NCBI GenBank assembly: GCA_951406725.2
Contig: OX597821.1
Location: forward strand, 89,590,001 to 89,654,000
Origin: Octopus vulgaris
Taxonomy: Eukaryota
Length of the DNA: 64,000 nt
Direction: 5' to 3'
The number at the start of each line of letters is the position of its first letter. Position 1 is the stretch's first letter. Both the position numbers and the translations under genes were made by a program. Under the pieces are notes generated by a model. It did not search any database and had not been told where the DNA came from. It worked only from the letters and a program-made list of their open reading frames with translations. Positions 21,432-61,334 of this stretch are shown here, in pieces.

Positions 21432-22725
21432 AGGAGGTGCATGTGGCAGGCTGGCAGGAATGTTAGCATGCTGGGTGAAATTGTAAGCGGTATTTCAAAA
21501 TTCCGCCGAGGTCTACTTTGCCTTTCATCCTTTTGGGGGTCAATAAATTAAGTACCAGTTGCATACTGAGGTAGATCTAATCAACTAGTTCCTTCCTCCA
21601 AAATTTCAGGCCTTGTGCCTAGAGTAAAAATGTATTATTATGGAGGTGATCTGGCAGAATCGTTAGCACACTGTGAAATACTTAACAGTGTTTCATCTGT
21701 TTTCACCTTCTGAGTTCAAATTCCGCTGAGGTCGACATTGCCTTTCATCCTTTTGGAGTCAATACCAGTTGAATATTGGAGTCGATATAATTGGCTATCT
21801 CCCTTCCCTTCCCTAAACTTCAGGCCTTGTGCCTTTTGTAGAAAGGGTCATCATCATCATTATCATCATCATCATCATTATTATTATTATTAGAAGACAG
21901 TGAGCTGGCAGAATTGTTAGCATGCTAGACGAAATATTTATTGGTATTTTGCCTGTCACTCCATTCTGAGCTCAAATTCTAGTAAGGTCAACTTTGCTTT
22001 ACATACTTTCGAGGTCAATAAAAGTAAATATTGGTTGAATGGTGGGGTCAATGTAATTGACTCATCCCCTCTCCCAAAATTGCTGCCCTTCTAACAAAAC
22101 TTGAAACCATTATCATTATTATTATTATTATTAGTAGTAGTAGTAGTAAGGTGGTGAGCTGGCAGAAACGTTAGCACGCTGGGCGAAATGCTTAGCGGTA
22201 TTTTGTCTGCCGTTACGTTCTGAGTTCAAATTCCGCCGAGGTCAATTTTGCCTTTCATCCTTTCGGGGTCGATTAAAGAAGTACCAGTTACGCACTGGGG
22301 TCGATGTAATCGACTTAATCCGTTTGTCTGTCCTTGTTTGTCCCCTCTGTGTTTAGCCCCTTGTGGGTAGTAAAGAAATAGGTATTTCGTCTAATGCTAC
22401 GTTCTGAGTTCAAATTCCGCCAAGGTTGACTTTGCCTTTCATCTTTTTGGGGGTCAATAAATTAAGTACTAGTTACGTACTGGGATCGATCTAATCGATT
22501 GTCTGTCCTTGTTTGTCCTCTCTGTGTTTAGCCCCTTGTGAGTAGTAAAGAAATAAGTATTTCGTCTGTCTTTACATTCTTAGTTCAAATTCCGCCAAGG
22601 TTGACATTGCCTTTCATCTTTTTGGGGGTCAATAAATTAAGTACTAGTTACGTACTGGGATCGATCTAATCGATTGGCCCCTTCCTCCAAAATTTCAGGC
22701 TTTGTACCTATAGTAGAAAGATTAT
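21432..22725 (+). mobile_element. Head-to-tail cluster of family A SINEs, ending in a trimer (22150-22725)
   Basis: Four heads (CTGGCAG.A..GTTAGCA), six cores, same orientation, separated by (TTA/TCA)n. Confidence 0.85.
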
Positions 22726-23730: not shown

Positions 23731-23959
23731 TATCTGATGTAAATATAGAGATATCTTGAAAAAGAAAAAAAAATAACACATCTTTTCTGGGACATTTTAT
23801 TATTATCCAAGTTCAAAAGCTTATCTTTATTTGCTTTCTTTCTGAATACTATTTTATTTTATTTCATTTTATTTCATATTTTACTTACTTTTATAGAATA
23901 CAAGAAAATGTTATGTTGAATTGTGGCTAGCATTCATTTCAATAATATAGCTGTTATGA

Positions 23960-24850
23960 TCGAGCTGGCAGAAACGTTAGCACGCCGGGCGAAATGCTTA
24001 GCGGTATTTTGTCTGCAGTTACGTTCTGAGTTCAAATTTTGCCGAGGTCGACTCTGCCTTTCATCCTTTTGGGGTCGATTATATAAGTACTAGTTACACA
24101 CTGTGGTCGATATAATCGACTTAACTCGTTTGTCTGTCCTTGTTTGTCCCCTCTGTGTTTAACCCCTTGTGGCTAGTAAAGAAATAGGTATTTTGTCTGC
24201 CGCTACACTTTGAGTTTAAATTCCGCTGAGGTCGACTTTACCTTTCATCCTTTCGGGGTCAATAAAAGTACTGGTTGCGTACTGAGGTTGATCTAATCGA
24301 CTGCCCCCCCCCCCCAAGTTTCGGACCTTGTGCCTAGAGTAGAAATGAATATAGCTGTTATGATATTTTTGTTGTTGTTAGTGTTATTACTATTAGCATT
24401 GTTTTTAAGGCAATAACCTTGTAGAATCATTAACACACAGGGTTTAGCGGTATTTTGTCTGTCATTAATTTCTGCTGAGGTCAAGTTTGCCTGTCATTCT
24501 TTCAGGGTCGATAAAATAAGTACAATTTAAGCACTGGGGGTCAATGTAATCGACAGGTTCCTCTCCCACAAATTTCATGCCTTGTGCCTATAGAAGAAAG
24601 GATTATTATTATTGTTGCTGTTTTTATTCTTATCATTACCATTATTGTTATGTTCTAGATAGCAAGCTGGCAGAATCGTTAGCACACTGGAAAAAGTGCT
24701 TAGTGGTATTTTACCTGTCCCTATGTCATGAGTTCAAAGCTTGCCAAGGTCAATTTGCCTTTCCTCATTTCAGAGTCAATAAAATAAGTACCAGTTGCAT
24801 ATGGGGTCAATCTAATATTCAGGCCTTGTGCCTATAGTAGAAAGGATTAT
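23960..24850 (+). mobile_element. Family A SINE dimer plus two monomers
   Basis: Matches consensus; tail-core junction TAAAGAAATA|GGTATTT at about 24186. Confidence 0.85.
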
Positions 24851-33724: not shown

Positions 33725-34885
33725 ATGGTGGCGAGCTGGCAGAAACGTTAGCATGCTGGATGAAATGCTTAGTGATGTTATGTCTGTCTTTGCATTCTGA
33801 GATCAAATTCCGCCGAAGTTGACTTTGCCTTTCATCCTTTCATGGTCATTAAATTAAGTACCAGTTGCATACTGGGGTCGATCTAAATTAATTCTTTATT
33901 GCCCACAGGGGGCTAAACACAGAGGGGACAAACAAGAACAGACAAACGGATTAAGTCGATTATATCGACCCCAGTAACTGGTACTTATTTAATCGACCCC
34001 GAAAGGATGAAAGGCAAAGTCGACCTCGGCGGAATTTGAACTCAGAACGTAGCGGCAGACGAATTACCGCTAAGAATTTCGCTCGGTGTGCTAATGTTTC
34101 TGCCAGCTCGCCGCCTGGGGTCGATCTAATTGACTAGCCCCATCTCCCCTATGAATTAAGTACCTGTTTCTTACTAGGTCAATCTAATCTACTGCCCACC
34201 TCCTCCCAAAAAATTTCAGGATTTGTGCCTAGAGTAGGAAAAATTATTGGATTTATCTAAGGCAGTGAGCTGGCAGAACATCAGCACGCCGGGCGAAATG
34301 CTTAGCGGTATTTCATCTGTCTACGTTCTGAGTTCAAATTCCGCTGAGCTCGATTTTGCATTTTATTCTTTCATGGTCGTTATTATTAAGTACCAGTTGC
34401 ATACTGGGGTCGATCTACTTGACTGGCCCCACCTCCCCAAAAGTTTCGGGCCTTGTACCTAGAGTAGAAAAGATTATTGGATTTACCTAAGGTGGCAAGC
34501 TGGCAGAATCGTTAGCATGCCTGGCGAAATGCTAAGCGGTATTTCGTCTGCCGTTACGTTCTGTGTTCAAATTCCTCTGAGGTTGACTTTGCCTTTCATC
34601 CTTTCGAGTTCAATTAAATAAGTACCAGTTATGCACTGGGGTCGATATAACCAACTTAATCCGTTTGTCTGTCCTTGTTTGTCCTCTCTGTGTTTAGCCC
34701 ATTGTGGGCAGTAAAGAAATAGGTATTTCATCTGTCTTTACGTTCAAATTCTTCCAAGGTTGAATTTGTCTTTCATTCTTTCGGGATTGATAAATTAAAT
34801 ACCAGCTGCATACTGGGGTTAATATAATCTACTGTCCCCACCTCCCCCAAAACTTTGGACCCTGAGCCGAGAGTAGAAAAGAAAA
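33725..34885 (+). mobile_element. Cluster of family A SINEs
   Basis: Three plus-strand heads, one dimer, one nested minus copy. Confidence 0.85.
33887..34115 (-). mobile_element. Family A monomer with Tx1-like tail and 14-bp TSD
   Basis: TGGGGTCGATCTAA at 33873-33886 and 34116-34129. Confidence 0.9.
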
Positions 34886-36199: not shown

Positions 36200-36981
36200 T
36201 GAGTGTGTGATATGTTATATATGCATGTGTGTGCACGAAGTGGTAGCAAAGAGTTTATATTTCCCCACTTTCTGCTCATTGCCTATCTTTTTGTCCCCAT
36301 TATCGATGTCACGACACTAAACAGGAGACATTGATAACTGTCAGCTTGATCGCTGTGGAATAGCCATTGAGATCATGACTCTGTCCGAGCAATCGACACA
36401 TTTGATCGACACTTTGCATCAGATAAACCAGCAAATTACACAGAAGGAGGCCATAACTTCCTTTGGATAGCTTTCACAATATGCTAACTGCAGTTAACAA
36501 TGACAACTGCAACAATGATAAATATTACTGATTCTGCTGCAACAACAACAAGAACATCAGTTCCAGTGGAACAAGAAATAAAAGCCAACAACAGCTGAAG
36601 TTATAGCAAGTCCAATAAGAAGAAGAAGAAGAACACAAAAATAAAGCAACGATATTAGTGAGAACTCAAGTGATGTCATGATAACAGTTGTAACAACAGT
36701 TGAGATAATATCAACATGAAAGCTAATAAGAGCAATAATGGAAACATGGTATTTGTTGGTTGGTCAACCAGCTACAGAAAAATACCCAAATCCATCTAAA
36801 ATCCTATCCTAATATCTTTCAAGAAAAAAGAAACAAGGTATTAGAAAGCATAGTCCTATAAACATCAGATAGTGTGGGATGAGCATGGCTGGGATCTCTC
36901 TGATCCTAGGCATGTTCAGCAGGATATACAAGTATAGCATGGGGCTAAAAGACAGTACAGCCTCAATACTACACAGGTATA

Positions 36982-37458
36982 TATAATATCCATTAATTAC
37001 ACAGTTATATATAGAGAGATACCACATTACTGTATAAAATATCAATTAATTACACAGTTATATATAGCGATACCACATTACCATATTTAATATCCATTAA
37101 TTACACAGTTATATATAGTGATACCACATTACCATATATAATATCCATTAATTACACAGTTATATATAGCGATACCACATTACCATATATAATATCAATT
37201 AATTAAACAGTTATATATAGTGATACCACATTACCATATATAATATCCATTAATTACAGTTATATATAGCGATACCACATTACCGTATATGATATCCATT
37301 AATTACACAGTTATATATAGCGATACCACATTACCGTATATGATATCCATTAATTACACAGTTATATATAGCGATACCATATTACCATATATATATAATA
37401 TCCATTAATTACACAGTTATATATAGCAATACCACATAACCATATATAATATGCCATT
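36982..37458. repeat. 51-bp minisatellite, about nine units
   Basis: Unit ATATCCATTAATTACACAGTTATATATAGCGATACCACATTACCATATATA. Confidence 0.95.
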
Positions 37459-39029: not shown

Positions 39030-39425
39030 TATGTTATGGATTTGTTATGGATGTTATGGATTTGTTACTTGATCTCCAATATTATGTCTGGTTGGCACTA
39101 AAGAAAGAAGAGAGAAAAGCAATGATTGGTGGAGTGGAGATGGAAGCAGAAAATGCTCCAACTGGGGATACAGCAGTGACATATGAAAGGAAGACCAAAG
39201 CTGAGGGCAAACTACAAATTCTCAGCGAGTATTCAAGCGAAATAGTTGCTGCAAAAGTAATTACAACCCCTAACATGGGAAAATGTATGTTACAGTGAGG
39301 GTGAAAGAACCTAGTTATTACCTGGTTGCATGGAACAAACAAAAGAGCAATGCAGAAGGGAAGTGCTAAAATCATTGTGAATGTTAGTTAACAGCTGATA
39401 GAATGTGCAAGTAAAATATATAATA

Positions 39426-39821
39426 CTAGCAGTATCACCCGGTGTTGCTCGGGTTTGTAAGGGAAATAACTATATAAGCATTTTTAGAGATGTAAAGTAT
39501 AACAGCCATCTAAATATGGCTAACCACAAGGGGGGGAGTGTTACTCTAGCTTTTTACGTTCTGAGATTTAATAATAAATTTTTAGAGAGTTACTTCCCTT
39601 ATATATGCCAAAAATGCATTAAAAATGGGAAAAATTAATGGTAATTTTTTTTTAAATCGTAGACTCACCGTAGATGCGTTCTAATACCCAGAAGGGCTCG
39701 ATATGAATCACGACTATAAGATACTCGGTTTTGGTTAAACTGCACCGCAAAATGTGGGAGTAGTTAGGAATCTAAATCATAGGAGACAGACAGCACACAA
39801 CCTCACTGTTATATATAAAGA
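39426..39821 (-). mobile_element. Non-autonomous Helitron, subtype 1
   Basis: TC start, hairpin, CTAG end; near-identical to 4546-4939. Confidence 0.85.
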
Positions 39822-40423
39822 TATTACTTCAGCATATAGCTGCATATAACATAGCATCATTTCCACACTGCCTATATAATGTTATCATCAACTATGCTAA
39901 ATAACATCCCTGTAACCATGCAAGATTGTTCTGGTGAGAGCCATTGAGACCCCTGGTAGATTGGAGAATGAACTAGCTGAACTCTTGTAAAAAGTAGAGG
40001 TTGGTAGTAGTGGAGAGAGAGTTTTTTGGTCAGCAAGTCGATGCTGTTCAATAACACTGTGGGATGTTGGACGGAAGGTCCTGTTAAGAAGCTAGGGGTC
40101 TGGTTTGGTCCAGATCTCCAGGTAGAGGAGAATTGGGATGAGGTAACAAGCAAGGGAACTCCCCAAAACCAGACCTGCTAGAAAGGGCGGAGGTGACACG
40201 GAAGTTTACTGCATCCATTATCACCTACAGCCTAACCGTTGTGCCTTGTCCCGATTCGTAGCTGTGCAAGCTGGAGCGACTCCTCTTTCACTTTTTGTGG
40301 ATGTGGATACCACTTGTAAGGCACTCTATCTGCTGTCAAAATTTATAAAAATGGGAAGACGGAATAGTAACAGAAAAATAGGCAAAAGGATAAATATCAT
40401 AAGAGGCAAAAAATGGGAACACA

Positions 40424-42383: not shown

Positions 42384-43844
42384 TTGTTTTCGTTCCAACA
42401 CACGATCTCTGATCAGATCCCTTGCTATGCAAATACATCTCCGTAATGAGAAATATTATTTTCTCTAAAATCATGAAAGTTTGCAAGCTACATGAAATGT
42501 TTTAATGAACTGCTTGCATATACTCTCTCATCTCTTTACATGTGTTTATTTTTCAAATTTCTGCTCACTGTCTGAAAAAAAAAATTGTTCATTTAGTATA
42601 CTGTTCATATATGTTGTCAGTACTATATGCATGTGTAATCCATCTGAGGATGTTGATCAAATTTTCGCTCGCTAAGCAAATGACTTTCCGGTCATATATA
42701 CAAGGGCCTGGGAACAGGGGGTGCAGCGGGTGCACCTGCACCCCTTGGAATTTTCAGGTGGTGCAAGATCAAAATTTGCTCCCCCTACATAACTTTACAG
42801 GTTTCAGAAAATAGTGTCTAAAAAATTATCTGTATAAGATGCTTAAAGCTAGACTTCGTTTCAAAGCAAAAACAAAGAACAGAAATAAATAAATAAAAGT
42901 GGTGAAGCTGGGCTTAAAATTCCCAAGGGAATTTATGACTAACCAACTTCTAAAGCAAATTAGCTTCAAAATAAAAAGTATGTGACAACAACAACAGTAG
43001 CAGCAAACAACAAGAACAACAACAAGACCAGCATCTACGGCTACTCTTCAATACATAGCATTACTTGGATTCTTGAAGACAGCTCTATTCTGACAAAAAT
43101 AACTCCAAAATCTTGCAATGCTGAAAATGTGTGAAAGTTCTTGTCCTCTCTCAGTCTGTCACCTCTCTCAAGTTCTTTGTAGTTGATGTTGCTAAAGACT
43201 GACGACATGGTTGAATGGATTCGACTGTTTGACCTCAGCCTAAAAGTAAAAGCCCTTTAAAAATTCTTTCAGTCATATCGGTTTTCACATTTAGGTTGTT
43301 AGGTCCAAAGTTTGACAAGGAAACAAAATGATTTATTTTTATCTTTGATATTTAATGCTCATTGTTAAATGCTTTGATACTTATTGCCCATTCGAAATAC
43401 TAGTCCAGTTTAATAAATAAAAGATTATGAAAGGAAGCATTTAACTATAAATGATTGCAGACCAACCCACGAAATTATCTACTTTGCAAAGAAATGTATT
43501 CGACAATTTCAGACTTATTTATATAAAAAGGAAATGATATTAAAAGCATTACCTACCGTCATCATGACGCGGTTAACCATGAAGATCAATTCAGAGGTGC
43601 ATTTTTTTCCTCTTAAGTCTAACCCTAGCTGAGACCAGCACACAGGCTAATGTGCTTTTAACAGGGGCCTTTAATTTTACTAATCTTAGCTAAGCTTAGC
43701 CTGGAATTAAGCAACTAAAGTGGAGGGATATGAACACTTTTCTCGATACAACAAAAGACTTTCCCAAAGAAATCATTACCCATCCAATAATAGGAAAATG
43801 ACATGCCCTACTGTCTTTATTCACAATCCTTTATTCCAAGGACT

Positions 43845-45840
43845 TCATAGCAAATTCCGAGGATTTCGTGGAAAGTTCCGAGGATTTCCTAACTTCCTGG
43901 AAAATTAATCGGAACCTTCCGAGGATTTCGTGTAAAAATTCCGAGGATTTCATGGAAAGTTCCGAGGATTTCATAACTTCCTGGAAAATTGGTCGCAAAC
44001 TCACAGGAAAGTTCCAATGATTCCATGGAAAGTTCCGATGATTCACTGGAAAGTTCCGATGGTTTCCTGGAAAATTCCTGAAAAGTTATGAGGATTTCAA
44101 GGAAAGTTCCAATGATTTCCGAACTTCCTGGAAAGAACTGGGGATTTCTTCACTTCCTGGAAAATTGACAGGCAACTTCCTGGAAAGTTCCGAGGATTTC
44201 ATGGGAAGTTCCGAGGATTTCCTACATACCTGGAAAATTGGACGGAAACTTCCGAGGATTTCTGGGGGAGTTCCGAGGATTTCATGGAGAGTTCCAAGGA
44301 TTTCTTATCTTCCTGGAAAATTGATCGAAAACTTCCTGGAAAGTTCCGAGGGTTCCATGGAAAGTTCCGATGATTTCCTGACTTCCTGGAAAATTAATCG
44401 GAAACTTCCTGGAAAGTTCCGAAGGTTTCTTCAATCACTGGAAAATTGGTCGGAATGTTCCTGGAAAGGACCTAGGATTTCATGGGAAATTCCGAGGATA
44501 TTATGGAAAGGTCCGAGGGTTTCCTAATTTCCTGGAAAATTGTTTGGGAACTTCCTGGAAGGTTCCGAGGGTGTCTTCACTTCCTGGAAAGTTCCGATGA
44601 ATTCGTGGGAAGTTCCGAGGATTTCCTACCTCCCTGGAAAATTGGACCGAAACTGCCGAGGATTTCTGGGGGAGTTCCGAGGATTTCATGGAGAGTTCCA
44701 AGGATTTCCTAACTTCCTGCAAAATTGATCGAAAACTTCCTGGAAAGTTCCGAAGGTTTCTTCACTCCCTGGAAAATTGGTCGGAATGTTCCTGCAAAGG
44801 TCCTAGGATTTCATGGGAAATTCCGAGGATTTTATGGAAAGTTCCGAGGACTTCCTAACTTCCTGGAAAATTGGTTGGGAACTTCCTGGAAGGTTCCGAG
44901 GATTTCTTCACTTCCTGGAAAATTGACCTGCAACTTCCTGGAAAGTTCCGAGGTTGTCATGGGAAGTTCCGAGGATTTCCTAACTTCCTGGAAAGTTCCG
45001 AGGATTCCATGGTAAGTACCAAGGATTACCTCACTTACATGAAAATTGAATTGAAACTTCCTGGAAAGTTCCGAGGATTTCCTAACTTTTTGGAAAATTG
45101 GTTGGGAACTTCCTGGAAGGTTCCGATGCTTTCTTCACTTCCTGGAAAATTGACCGACAACTTCCTGGAAAGTTCCGGGGTTTTCTTGGGAAGTTCCGAT
45201 GATTTCCTAACTTCCTGGAAAGTTCCGTGGATTCCATGGTAAGTACCAAGGATTACCTAACTTACAGGAAAATTGAACGGAGACTTCCTGGAAAGTTCCG
45301 CGGATTTCCTGACTTCTTGGAAAGTTGATCTAAAACTTCCTGGAAGGTTCCGATGATTCCATGGAAAGTTCCGATGATTTCCTAACTTCCTGGCAAGTTT
45401 CAAGGATTTCATGGAGAGTTCCGAGGATTTCCCAACTTCCTGGAAAATTGGCCGGGGACTTTTTAGAAAGTTCGGAGATTTCCATGGAATGTTCCATGTA
45501 TTTCTTCACTTCCTGGAAAATTGACTGGAAACTTCCGGTTATTTCTTCACTTCCTAGAATATAAACTGAAGACTTCCTGGTAAGATCCGGGGGGTTTCAT
45601 GGGAAGTTCCGAGGGTTTCCTGACGTCCTGGAATATTTAGCGGAAAGTTCCGATGATTCCATTGAAAGTTCCGATGATTTATGGGATGTTCCGAAGATTT
45701 CACGAAAATTTCCCAGGATTTCCTAACTTTCTGTGAAATTGGTCAGAAACTTATTGGAAAGTTCCGAGGATTCCATAGAAAGTTCCGATGATTTCATAGA
45801 AGGTTCCAAGGATTTTATGGGAAGTTCCAAGGATTTCATT
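43845..45840. repeat. Complex satellite of about 20-nt GGAAAGTTCCGAGGATTTC / ACTTCCTGGAAAATTG units with higher-order blocks
   Basis: Directly visible; longer blocks recur (44230/44633, 44411/44742, 45003/45230). Confidence 0.95.
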
Positions 45841-45845
45841 AGAAG

Positions 45846-54109: not shown

Positions 54110-54144
54110 TGTATACATTTAATATGATAGGTATATTATATATA

Positions 54145-54542
54145 CTAGCAGTATCACCCGGCGTTGCTCGGGTTTGTAAGGGAAATAACTATATAAGCAT
54201 TTTTAGAGAGTTATAGTCAAAAAATAGCAAAAAAATGAATTAAAAATGGAAAAAAAATTATGGTAATTTTTTTTTTAAATCGTTGACTCATCGTAGACAT
54301 TTTTAGAGAGTTGCTTCCCTTATATAATAGCGAAAAAATGCATTAAAATGGAAAAAAATGATGGTAAATTATTTTTAAAATCGTAGACTCATCGTAGATG
54401 CATGCTAATACCCAGAAGGGCTCGATATGAATCACGACTATAAGATACCCGGTTTTGGTTACACTGCACCGCAAAATGTGGGAGTAGTTAGGAATCTAAA
54501 TCATAGGAGACAGACACACAACTTCACTTTTATATATAAAGA
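54145..54542 (-). mobile_element. Non-autonomous Helitron, subtype 2
   Basis: TC start, hairpin, CTAG end; matches 29956-30350. Confidence 0.85.
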
Positions 54543-59467: not shown

Positions 59468-61277
59468 ACTTTCTTTTATTAGCCACACAGGGCTGAATAC
59501 AGAGGGGACAAATACAAATGCAGAGCTTTTCTTTTCGAGGGTGGAAAAAAATAAAAAATGTAAGATTGCGATCAAAAGGGATCGAGAGGAGGAAAAAAAA
59601 AAGGAAAAAAAGGAAAATCGTGTATCACAGAAATAATGGTATAAACATTGATATAACAAGATTGGGTTCATCCGTGGGAAGAAAAGCCTACAGAAAAGAC
59701 TACGGGAACCCCAGTCAGGGAGGAAATAAACACATGAGGTCAAAAATGCTCTCTTTCTTTCTTTTTTACGATCTACAGGATCATGCTCAAAATGGTTTCG
59801 TTACTAGCACGCACCATCTTTGCAACATTCACCCATCTTTTTTTAATCTTTCGCGAGACAAAACTTCCCTCTCCATTCTCACCTTCCTTTTCAAGTGGTA
59901 CTTGAAAAAGTTGATGAGCGATTGGCCAGAGAGGTAAGTGTTTGTCTCTAATCCTTTCGCTCGAGTCCACCTGAAATTATCTATGACGTCCCCCTTGTTT
60001 GGGTCTTTCTTGATCAGTGCCACTGCTCCTCGCTTTACAAAAGCAGGAATACTCCCGTTCTGCTGCCAGTTGCAGTAGACAGCTGCCAAGACGCCTCCAA
60101 ACAAGTCTGGCATATGAAAATAAAATTCGTAGGGCAGACCATCCAAGCCTGGTGACTTGTCTCTCGCGCAGCCTACCATCGCATCCTGTACATCCGCAGC
60201 TGTGATAGGCTTTTCACAAGACTCCACCTCCCTTGCTGAGAGTCGTGGCAAGGCATGCAGGTAGGCACTAAAGTCCACTCTGCTTTCTGTCTCACCACTT
60301 GTCCCAAACAGTTGGGTGAAGTGTTGTTGAAAAACCCCACACATCCTTTTAGGCTCGAGCAATTCGCGCCCCTGTTCATCTATAAGAGACTTGATGGTGG
60401 CTCTGTTGCCTCGTTGCGTCTCCACCACTCGGGCCTCTTGGGCGGCTCCAACTCCTTCGTTCCTCAGAGCACGCATCCTAGCTCTGACAACGCATCCCTC
60501 GTGTTTGGCGTTGAGGTGTTGGTCGAGGGCCAATCTCGCCGCCAGTACGTTGGACGCGATGCCAGTTCTAAGTGCCTCTTCTAAAACCTTAACTAATTCT
60601 CCCTCTATTCTATTTCGGTCTAATGCTAGGGCTCTACTGTATCTGACTGATTTTGCTTTAATCGCTTTTTTTAGGGCATACCACCATCTGTTGTTGATGA
60701 TGGTACCCGTCAAAGCTCTCTTAACTAATGTGCTGATCCGGTCCCTGTAAACCTGTCATGCTGTAAAAGACGCGTTCAGTTTCCAGTAACCAGGACCCTG
60801 CCTATGTGTCTTATCTAAGTCAAGTGTACAAGTCACAAACTTGTGATCTGTGTAACTGACTATATGAAATTGTGGACAACCTACACTATTTTTATCTATT
60901 GTCCTACAGAATACTCTATCTAAGTATGATCTGGACGACCCGATGCGGTTACTCCATGTCCACATTGGCACATTCGGGTGGTCCAGTCGGTACCTGTCAG
61001 ACAGTTGGAAACGTCTGAGCAGGTCTTTGAGGCATTTGCATCCTCTTCTATTGCTATCTCTGCCCACGTAGTCTAGATGCGTGTCCAGGGTGGCATTCCA
61101 ATCCCCCACTAAAAGTAAAGGACGAGACGTTCCCATGAAAGACTCTAGACGTCGAAAGAAATCTGGTCGGCCTGTTAAGGACGGAGCATAAACTGCTATC
61201 AGTCGAAAAGCACACTCATTGCTGCCATCGACATCCAAAACGACCAGCCTACCCTCCGGGTCTAGGAAATTTGCTCT
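59468..61277 (-). mobile_element. Tx1/L1-clade LINE ORF2: APE plus linker, RT deleted, 3' UTR intact
   Basis: DPEGRLVV..AVYAP..VGDWN..WTW..SYLDR..TDH..GYWKLN; KSPGLDGLPYEFY; DNFR fused directly to the C-terminal region; one in-frame stop at 60756. Confidence 0.92.
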
Positions 61278-61334
61278 TAGATAGAAAGATAGATAAATAG
61301 ATAGATGGATACATAGATAGATAGATAGATAGAT

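Follow-up and report, generated by a model that had tools for sequence, protein, structure and literature searches.

Insertion of SINEs directed by Tx1-clade retrotransposons, SINE multimers that keep a single head, and plant and algal SINEs with L1-clade tails are all known already. In crocodilians, SINEU-3/Tx1-Mar is likewise a case in which Tx1-clade machinery inserted a SINE independently at fixed sites of another repeat, Mariner-N4_AMi, and the cited part of that report describes, as found here, two sites in one host and tandems formed by sequential insertion (PMC4494074). The SINEU elements described there have an snRNA head, a poly(A) tail, a DNA-transposon target and tandems that sandwich a duplication (PMC4494074), whereas the octopus SINE has its own family as target, a LINE-derived tail and mostly seamless joins. 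The SINE multimers of Scapharca broughtonii are similar in carrying one complete head, head-truncated repeats, a complete last tail and one flanking duplication, but their partners are CR1, CR1-Zenon, L2 and Nimb, the main text does not mention Tx1, and they account for ~3% of copies; recombination is suggested for them, and self-insertion is not described in the part of the paper cited (PMC11481361). In SINE/LINE pairs of maize, sorghum and Chlamydomonas the SINE also carries an L1-clade tail with a hairpin, but the lineages are plant and algal L1s, with a poly(A) end in the algal case, and the cited part of the paper describes no self-targeting (PMC3747384).

For R1Bm and SART1Bm (PMC7265360) and melanogaster-type R1 (PMC2718515), the portions of the reports cited describe target-matching RNA that aids first-strand priming and cDNA that anneals to the upstream target to give precise 5' joins, both of which resemble what we propose below. 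Unlike our case, these are R1-clade LINEs that move autonomously and occupy rDNA or telomeres, and not a SINE within its own family. The SINE-derived satellites of squamates, as presented in the cited sections, share tandem units made from part of a SINE and longer terminal units, but are ascribed mainly to recombination (PMC10702118). Among octopus repeats, OR1 and OR2 appear in two partly consulted sources as CORE-SINEs (PMC4824008, PMC4758252), and a 2026 repeat annotation of Octopus vulgaris includes L1-Tx1 elements and 893 active SINE families that it leaves unclassified, its consulted part making no mention of a self-targeting SINE (PMC13282606). We found no description of a self-targeting SINE in the open literature, with Repbase/Dfam, subscription papers and most supplements lying outside the search. 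New here are an age test of array halves, duplications at double-head loci, a second site with its link to a subfamily, and a candidate sister clade of LINEs.

The 64,000-nucleotide stretch of octopus DNA that was analysed (the window) contains four arrays of this SINE (Table 1). The element, of ~232 bp, consists of a head of ~47 nt and a 122-nt body, to which type A adds tail T (62 nt) and type B adds tail B; the bodies of the two types are told apart by positions 14, 16, 94, 97, 110 and 120-122. The element may correspond to OR1 or OR2. Motifs resembling the A-box and B-box consensus were seen by eye; ARAGORN predicted 0 tRNA genes in the SINE and Rfam gave no tRNA match. Because the main junction falls between the A-box-like and the B-box-like motif, an A box is missing from inner units. 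The majority A body plus tail contains no stretch of four T, which would make read-through transcription plausible.

Table 1. Coordinates of the SINE arrays, their parts and the LINE copy in the window
Feature	Position	Strand	Remark
Trimer, head-body-T-body-T-body-B	10962..11539	-	
Trimer, head-body-T-body-T-body-B	22149-22725	+	
SINE head with A-box-like motif, sole head of the 22149-22725 array	22149..22196	+	motif seen by eye
Unit 1 body, young A type, with B-box-like motif; begins at the main junction site body+1	22197..22318	+	
Tail T, homologous to L1/Tx1-type LINE 3' ends; weak 4-bp hairpin, then fixed end	22319..22380	+	
Unit 2 (175 bp), B-type body and tail T; likely local duplicate of unit 3 body	22381..22555	+	
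Unit 3, older B-type body and tail B; putative host copy	22556..22725	+	
Dimer, head-body-T-body-B	23961..24345	+	17-bp duplication around whole: 23944-23960, 24348-24364
Tail-T monomer, antisense insertion into another SINE	33889..34112	-	15-bp duplication 33872-33886, 34115-34129
Dimer, head-body-T-body-B; no. 3 in a tandem of B-tail copies; final unit heavily decayed	34490..34879	+	
L1/Tx1-type LINE copy inside (TATC)n; 5'-truncated in endonuclease, without ORF2 aa ~519-1080	59468..61292	-	

The initial annotation had recognized that the tail is followed by the same point inside the tRNA-like head in four arrays, and a shared point was confirmed at six junctions (22380/1, 22555/6, 24186/7, 34721/2, 11310/09 and 11126/5). 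Six of the seven tail-bearing SINE units in the window thus join the first body base, the seventh being the antisense monomer. It had also assigned a different short tail to each array; if four distinct tails are meant, this did not hold, as all four finish in one tail B, as do ordinary monomers. In the 22149-22725 array the unit 2 body is identical to that of unit 3 at 108/117 positions and to that of unit 1 at 97/116, and units 2 and 3 have private changes in common; judged from these alignments, unit 2 is likely a local copy of the unit 3 body. Tail-B monomers also form full-head tandems spaced by a repeated flank (window 34193-34879; L052).

A junction census had been proposed and was carried out on 2.8 Gb of genome, where 23,974 exact main junctions were present compared to 68,622 exact tail cores and a reversed-pattern control gave 0. 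The head+16 junction occurred 2,777 times and double heads 55 times; the patterns were of unequal length, and ratios between these counts are therefore rough. With a length of ~232 bp, this copy number and target duplications with a median of 16 bp, the element is short, high-copy and interspersed, as a SINE should be. Within 1.41 Mb, 223 tail ends were located, 117 at body+1, 7 at head+16, 92 in other DNA and 7 at other SINE offsets; a set of 142 elements comprised 59 monomers, 35 A-only multimers, 42 with a host body at the end and 6 at head+16. The sample is non-random, drawn mostly from tail-core hits in the first 4.6 Mb of contig C1 and centred on one tail variant. Duplicate loci (L032, L055-L057, L177, L199) were removed, and loci selected by junction or head (L141-L201) stand outside this census.

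Target duplications were detected at 35/64 elements tested, or 32 after removal of three of low complexity (median 16 bp), and in 25/32 the duplication begins exactly at the tail end. The SINE therefore has a fixed 3' end, lacks poly(A) and shows a target bias of ~5 nt that resembles the start of its own body. In 214 kb of untargeted DNA, only 20/377 sites matching the 5-mer coincide with SINE body starts, yet 42/142 elements finish in a host body compared to 14 non-SINE junctions with a matching 5-mer; with so few matching sites being SINE starts, the 5-nt preference alone is too weak to account for the distribution. No LINE was found at body+1 among 105 of 150 zf-RVT ends (0/105; several ends were poorly located), in the 2.02 Mb examined, or by DNA and family searches.

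The initial annotation had also matched the tail to the end of a LINE, and the match was confirmed: positions 22319-22380 align to 59470-59512(-) at 36/43 nt (E 2e-6 within the window; shuffle z ~16). Of 35 LINE ends compared with the tail, 34 scored above all 300 shuffles, the window copy ranking 15th/35 by local score, and the tail is common to many sister L1/Tx1-type LINE families that form a radiation. The conclusion that the tail derives from L1/Tx1-type LINEs without poly(A) is supported. Six copies from one sister clade (L311-L328; support 100, apart from the window LINE family in a quick ORF2 tree of own-genome copies only) were compared with the terminal 26 nt and agreed at 24-25/26, whereas the window LINE matches 12/26 terminal nt of the SINE tail ungapped. 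Another group (L276, L287) is the better match to the 5' half of the tail; taken over the whole tail, the scores overlap (55-70 vs 56). None of the LINE ends compared matched the whole SINE tail. By these comparisons the donor lineage is narrowed but not pinned to one LINE, with the sister clade L311-L328 as the candidate. A 4-bp hairpin in the tail covaries (70.8% paired, 13 double changes, 0/500 shuffles), but it was picked from single folds of related sequences; RNAalifold gave no consensus and energy z values were -0.1 to -1.8.

The LINE at 59468 belongs to a family with the domains of the Tx1 clade. Its full-length relative L062 encodes ORF1, with a zf-CCHC (zinc knuckle) match below cut-off, and ORF2 with an APE endonuclease (PF03372), reverse transcriptase (PF00078) and C-terminal zinc finger (PF13966); the best solved relative is human L1 ORF2. 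The family hit 'Transposon TX1 uncharacterized 149 kDa protein' at 40% identity, and the best named relative is from Argonauta hians (70% identity). TATC repeats follow 30/30 of the closest copies, a target preference of the kind known for Tx1 and similar to that of the microsatellite-targeting Kibi and Koshi elements as described in the cited part of PMC4494074, although the motif differs. These 30/30 copies all carry the 3' end, which answers the earlier question of whether other copies lack it, with the proviso that the query used to choose them included the end. The proposal that this LINE is the partner of the SINE did not survive: its copies lie in (TATC)n (30/30), no TATC-led flank was present among the SINE flanks listed, only 12/26 terminal nucleotides agree, and its tail type occurs at the SINE site once genome-wide, in a hit that is itself a SINE variant. 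From these sequence comparisons, the LINE at 59468 is unlikely to be the partner.

Copies of the (TATC)n-targeting family are stacked head to tail (L061-L068, L003-L029), with ORF2 intact in L062, L065 and L067; the best 40 of 3,467 candidates are 97-100% identical. An old Tx1-like ORF2 fragment at window 40011-40342 (+) is 56-58% identical to this young family. Sister LINE families (L226-L229; L324, L326, L328; L316, L320, L321; L202-L213; L329, L369, L381) each have a fixed flank of their own, which is a unique site within another repeat, (ATT/ATC)n or (TC)n, and in every case follows one conserved tail that lacks poly(A). One further sister L1/Tx1-type family (L251, L253, L255, L267) occupies a single site within the head of another tRNA-like SINE.

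Two fixed sites are tied to two SINE subfamilies. A C at tail position -13 was present at 24/30 head+16 junctions compared to 14/117 body+1 junctions (p=1e-12; the sets were chosen differently), and outside SINEs the C-variant tails were followed by A in 19/33 vs 5/59 (p=5e-7). Also at head+16 are two copies derived from LINEs of the sister clade, L423 and L428, and four close relatives of these have non-SINE flanks that begin AGAA (6/30). In L423 (C1:105509849, -), which is of the ORF1-only type, ORF2 aa 2-27 run straight into aa 1077-1139; L428 and L425, a further derivative of this clade, match across the join. In two RNA-seq runs from one study of organism G, the joint from the tail to 22164 was covered by 1,073 and 584 reads, compared to depths of 226 and 172 at 22381, which are lowered by private changes in the query; these reads carry no strand information and cannot reveal where SINE transcripts end. 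Runs X16 and X17, but not X18, were listed with contigs that bridge body+1. Given these joint reads and contigs, the preferred insertion site seems to differ between lineages.

Two origins had been proposed for the arrays, repeated site-specific insertion of the SINE into its own head and propagation of an ancestral multimer, and the former is the better supported by age and nested inserts. Among 24 A-B arrays the first unit was 5.3% diverged and the last unit 9.8% (p=3e-5), values that compare with 4.8% for A monomers and 11.5% for B monomers; the halves are not of equal age, as those of a composite SINE copied from one master should be. Pairwise diversity was 0.168 for last units, 0.198 for B monomers and 0.106 for first units. 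Grouping of units by array position, the check suggested earlier, was weak for first and second units (0.57 vs 0.49; p=0.009 and 0.054) and absent for last units, which did not cluster apart from B monomers (p=0.29). The weak clustering of first and second units suggests that some multimer masters may exist.

Nested insertions were observed directly. At L088 an old head is interrupted at body+1 by a full-length A copy, with a duplication of 16 bp. At 18 of 28 distinct double-head loci the host resumes at body+1 after a full-length insert; 14 of these 18 have at least 13 nt duplicated, and 12 resemble the host more closely than the start of the insert itself. Against self-insertion, the host does not resume at 6/28 loci and no tail was found at 4/28. 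Later neighbouring units differ by 3.6%, units 1 and 2 by 8.7% and units of different arrays by 10.9%. Since dimer halves differ by 10.2% and later neighbours by only 3.6%, arrays of at least three units have grown locally; rolling-circle replication or same-template jumping was rejected for dimers because their halves differ as much as unrelated copies do. Separately, a 64-69-bp unit of head plus duplication, seeded by double-head inserts, occurs in tandem runs at L198, L201, L176 and C14:84691111-84691416.

The 5' joins were less uniform. Simple annealing to the top strand predicts host-type bases at positions 14 and 16 in both first and last units, and this was observed in 3/24 arrays, compared to 8 that were A-then-B and 6 that were A-A, suggesting that the 5' join is variable or that the host head is often replaced. 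Divergence of the heads was intermediate and not significantly different, and diagnostic positions in the heads did not show whether a head came from host or donor. Extra body-derived bases ahead of the duplication were present in only 1/7 offset cases.

With a fixed 3' end, ~16-bp duplications, older hosts, full-length inserts with host-specific duplications and near-identical later units demonstrated, we favour, on balance, the view that a young SINE with a tail shared with LINEs, likely using a LINE enzyme, inserts repeatedly into its own family at fixed sites, likely by pairing of run-on RNA. SINE RNA would borrow an L1/Tx1-type LINE enzyme through its 62-nt tail and be reverse transcribed by the ORF2 protein of the sister clade. 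The RNA would run on past the tail and pair with a nicked target at body+1, or at head+16 for the second subfamily, in older copies. The new DNA copy, being homologous to the host sequence upstream, may then anneal there, which would usually give a seamless join with one head and rarely two heads. The transcript of an array would carry the landing sequence behind the tail, a potential positive feedback, and unequal exchange or slippage between neighbouring units could lengthen arrays and keep the junction. The stronger proposition, that the SINE is its own guide, with a landing site that is inherited with read-through RNA, switched between subfamilies and species (head+16 versus body+1) and seeds tandem arrays, is a fair possibility but less likely than not. 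Besides the weak position clustering, the double-head loci where the host does not resume and the irregular 5' joins described above, the following count against the favoured explanation: no LINE was found at body+1, no LINE matched the whole tail, and the folding support is weak.

The same repeated self-insertion might instead have its sites set by the endonuclease of the partner LINE, acting on a longer sequence context, two partners in turn giving two sites with no RNA pairing. The preference for head+16 is shared by LINE derivatives (L423 and L428 at the site, and the AGAA flanks of four close relatives), which endonuclease specificity explains equally well; sister LINE families have fixed targets of their own, and the consulted part of PMC4494074 ascribes target choice in Tx1 elements to the endonuclease. 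This account is a serious competitor but an unlikely one, since the bias at non-SINE sites extends over only ~5 nt, such sites outnumber SINE sites by ~18 to 1, closely related LINE copies have quite different flanks, and body+1 yielded no LINE. If pairing is set aside altogether, one or a few ancestral multimers could have arisen once and been copied whole as composite SINEs. Single duplications around whole arrays (the 23960 dimer and 13 A-only multimers), the position clustering (p=0.009), correlated divergence of first and last units (rho 0.58) and a double-head element that looks copied as a unit (L173) fit such an origin. We nevertheless regard it as improbable: the halves of A-B arrays are about twofold apart in age, independent double-head inserts have host-specific duplications, and first and second A units are split by no position-specific marker except position 1, which may reflect CpG context, and a flanking duplication would likewise be expected where the host keeps its own.

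Least probable of all, and by our estimate very improbable, is a DNA-level transfer of the tail-plus-junction segment from arrays into older monomers, by gene conversion or the repair of breaks and with no local reverse transcription. It would account for seamless joins, mixed heads and the A-A plus A-B states at bases 14/16 (14/24), and local duplication is evident in long arrays. It cannot produce double-head inserts with 13-17 nt duplications or the matching bias at non-SINE sites, nor would it lead one to expect the host sequence that is duplicated in both units at L135 and L097.

If self-insertion guided by run-on RNA is correct, a Tx1-type LINE tail on a SINE would make stringent recognition testable in an animal L1-clade lineage, and a SINE would have its own family as its main target. 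As a natural experiment, the two subfamilies and their two sites could separate RNA-guided from endonuclease-guided insertion, which bears on programmable retrotransposon insertion, and the arrays show how dispersed repeats could give rise to tandem ones. Repeat libraries may break such arrays into many artificial families.

Other repeats were also noted in the window. A 51-bp tandem repeat occupies 36979-37458 (9.3 copies, 90% matches), and 43833-45844 is a complex 21/52-bp minisatellite region with higher-order periods. An interspersed repeat of ~400 bp is present in two copies that are similar by eye (39420-39820 and 54140-54540), one of which breaks a LINE-like stretch.
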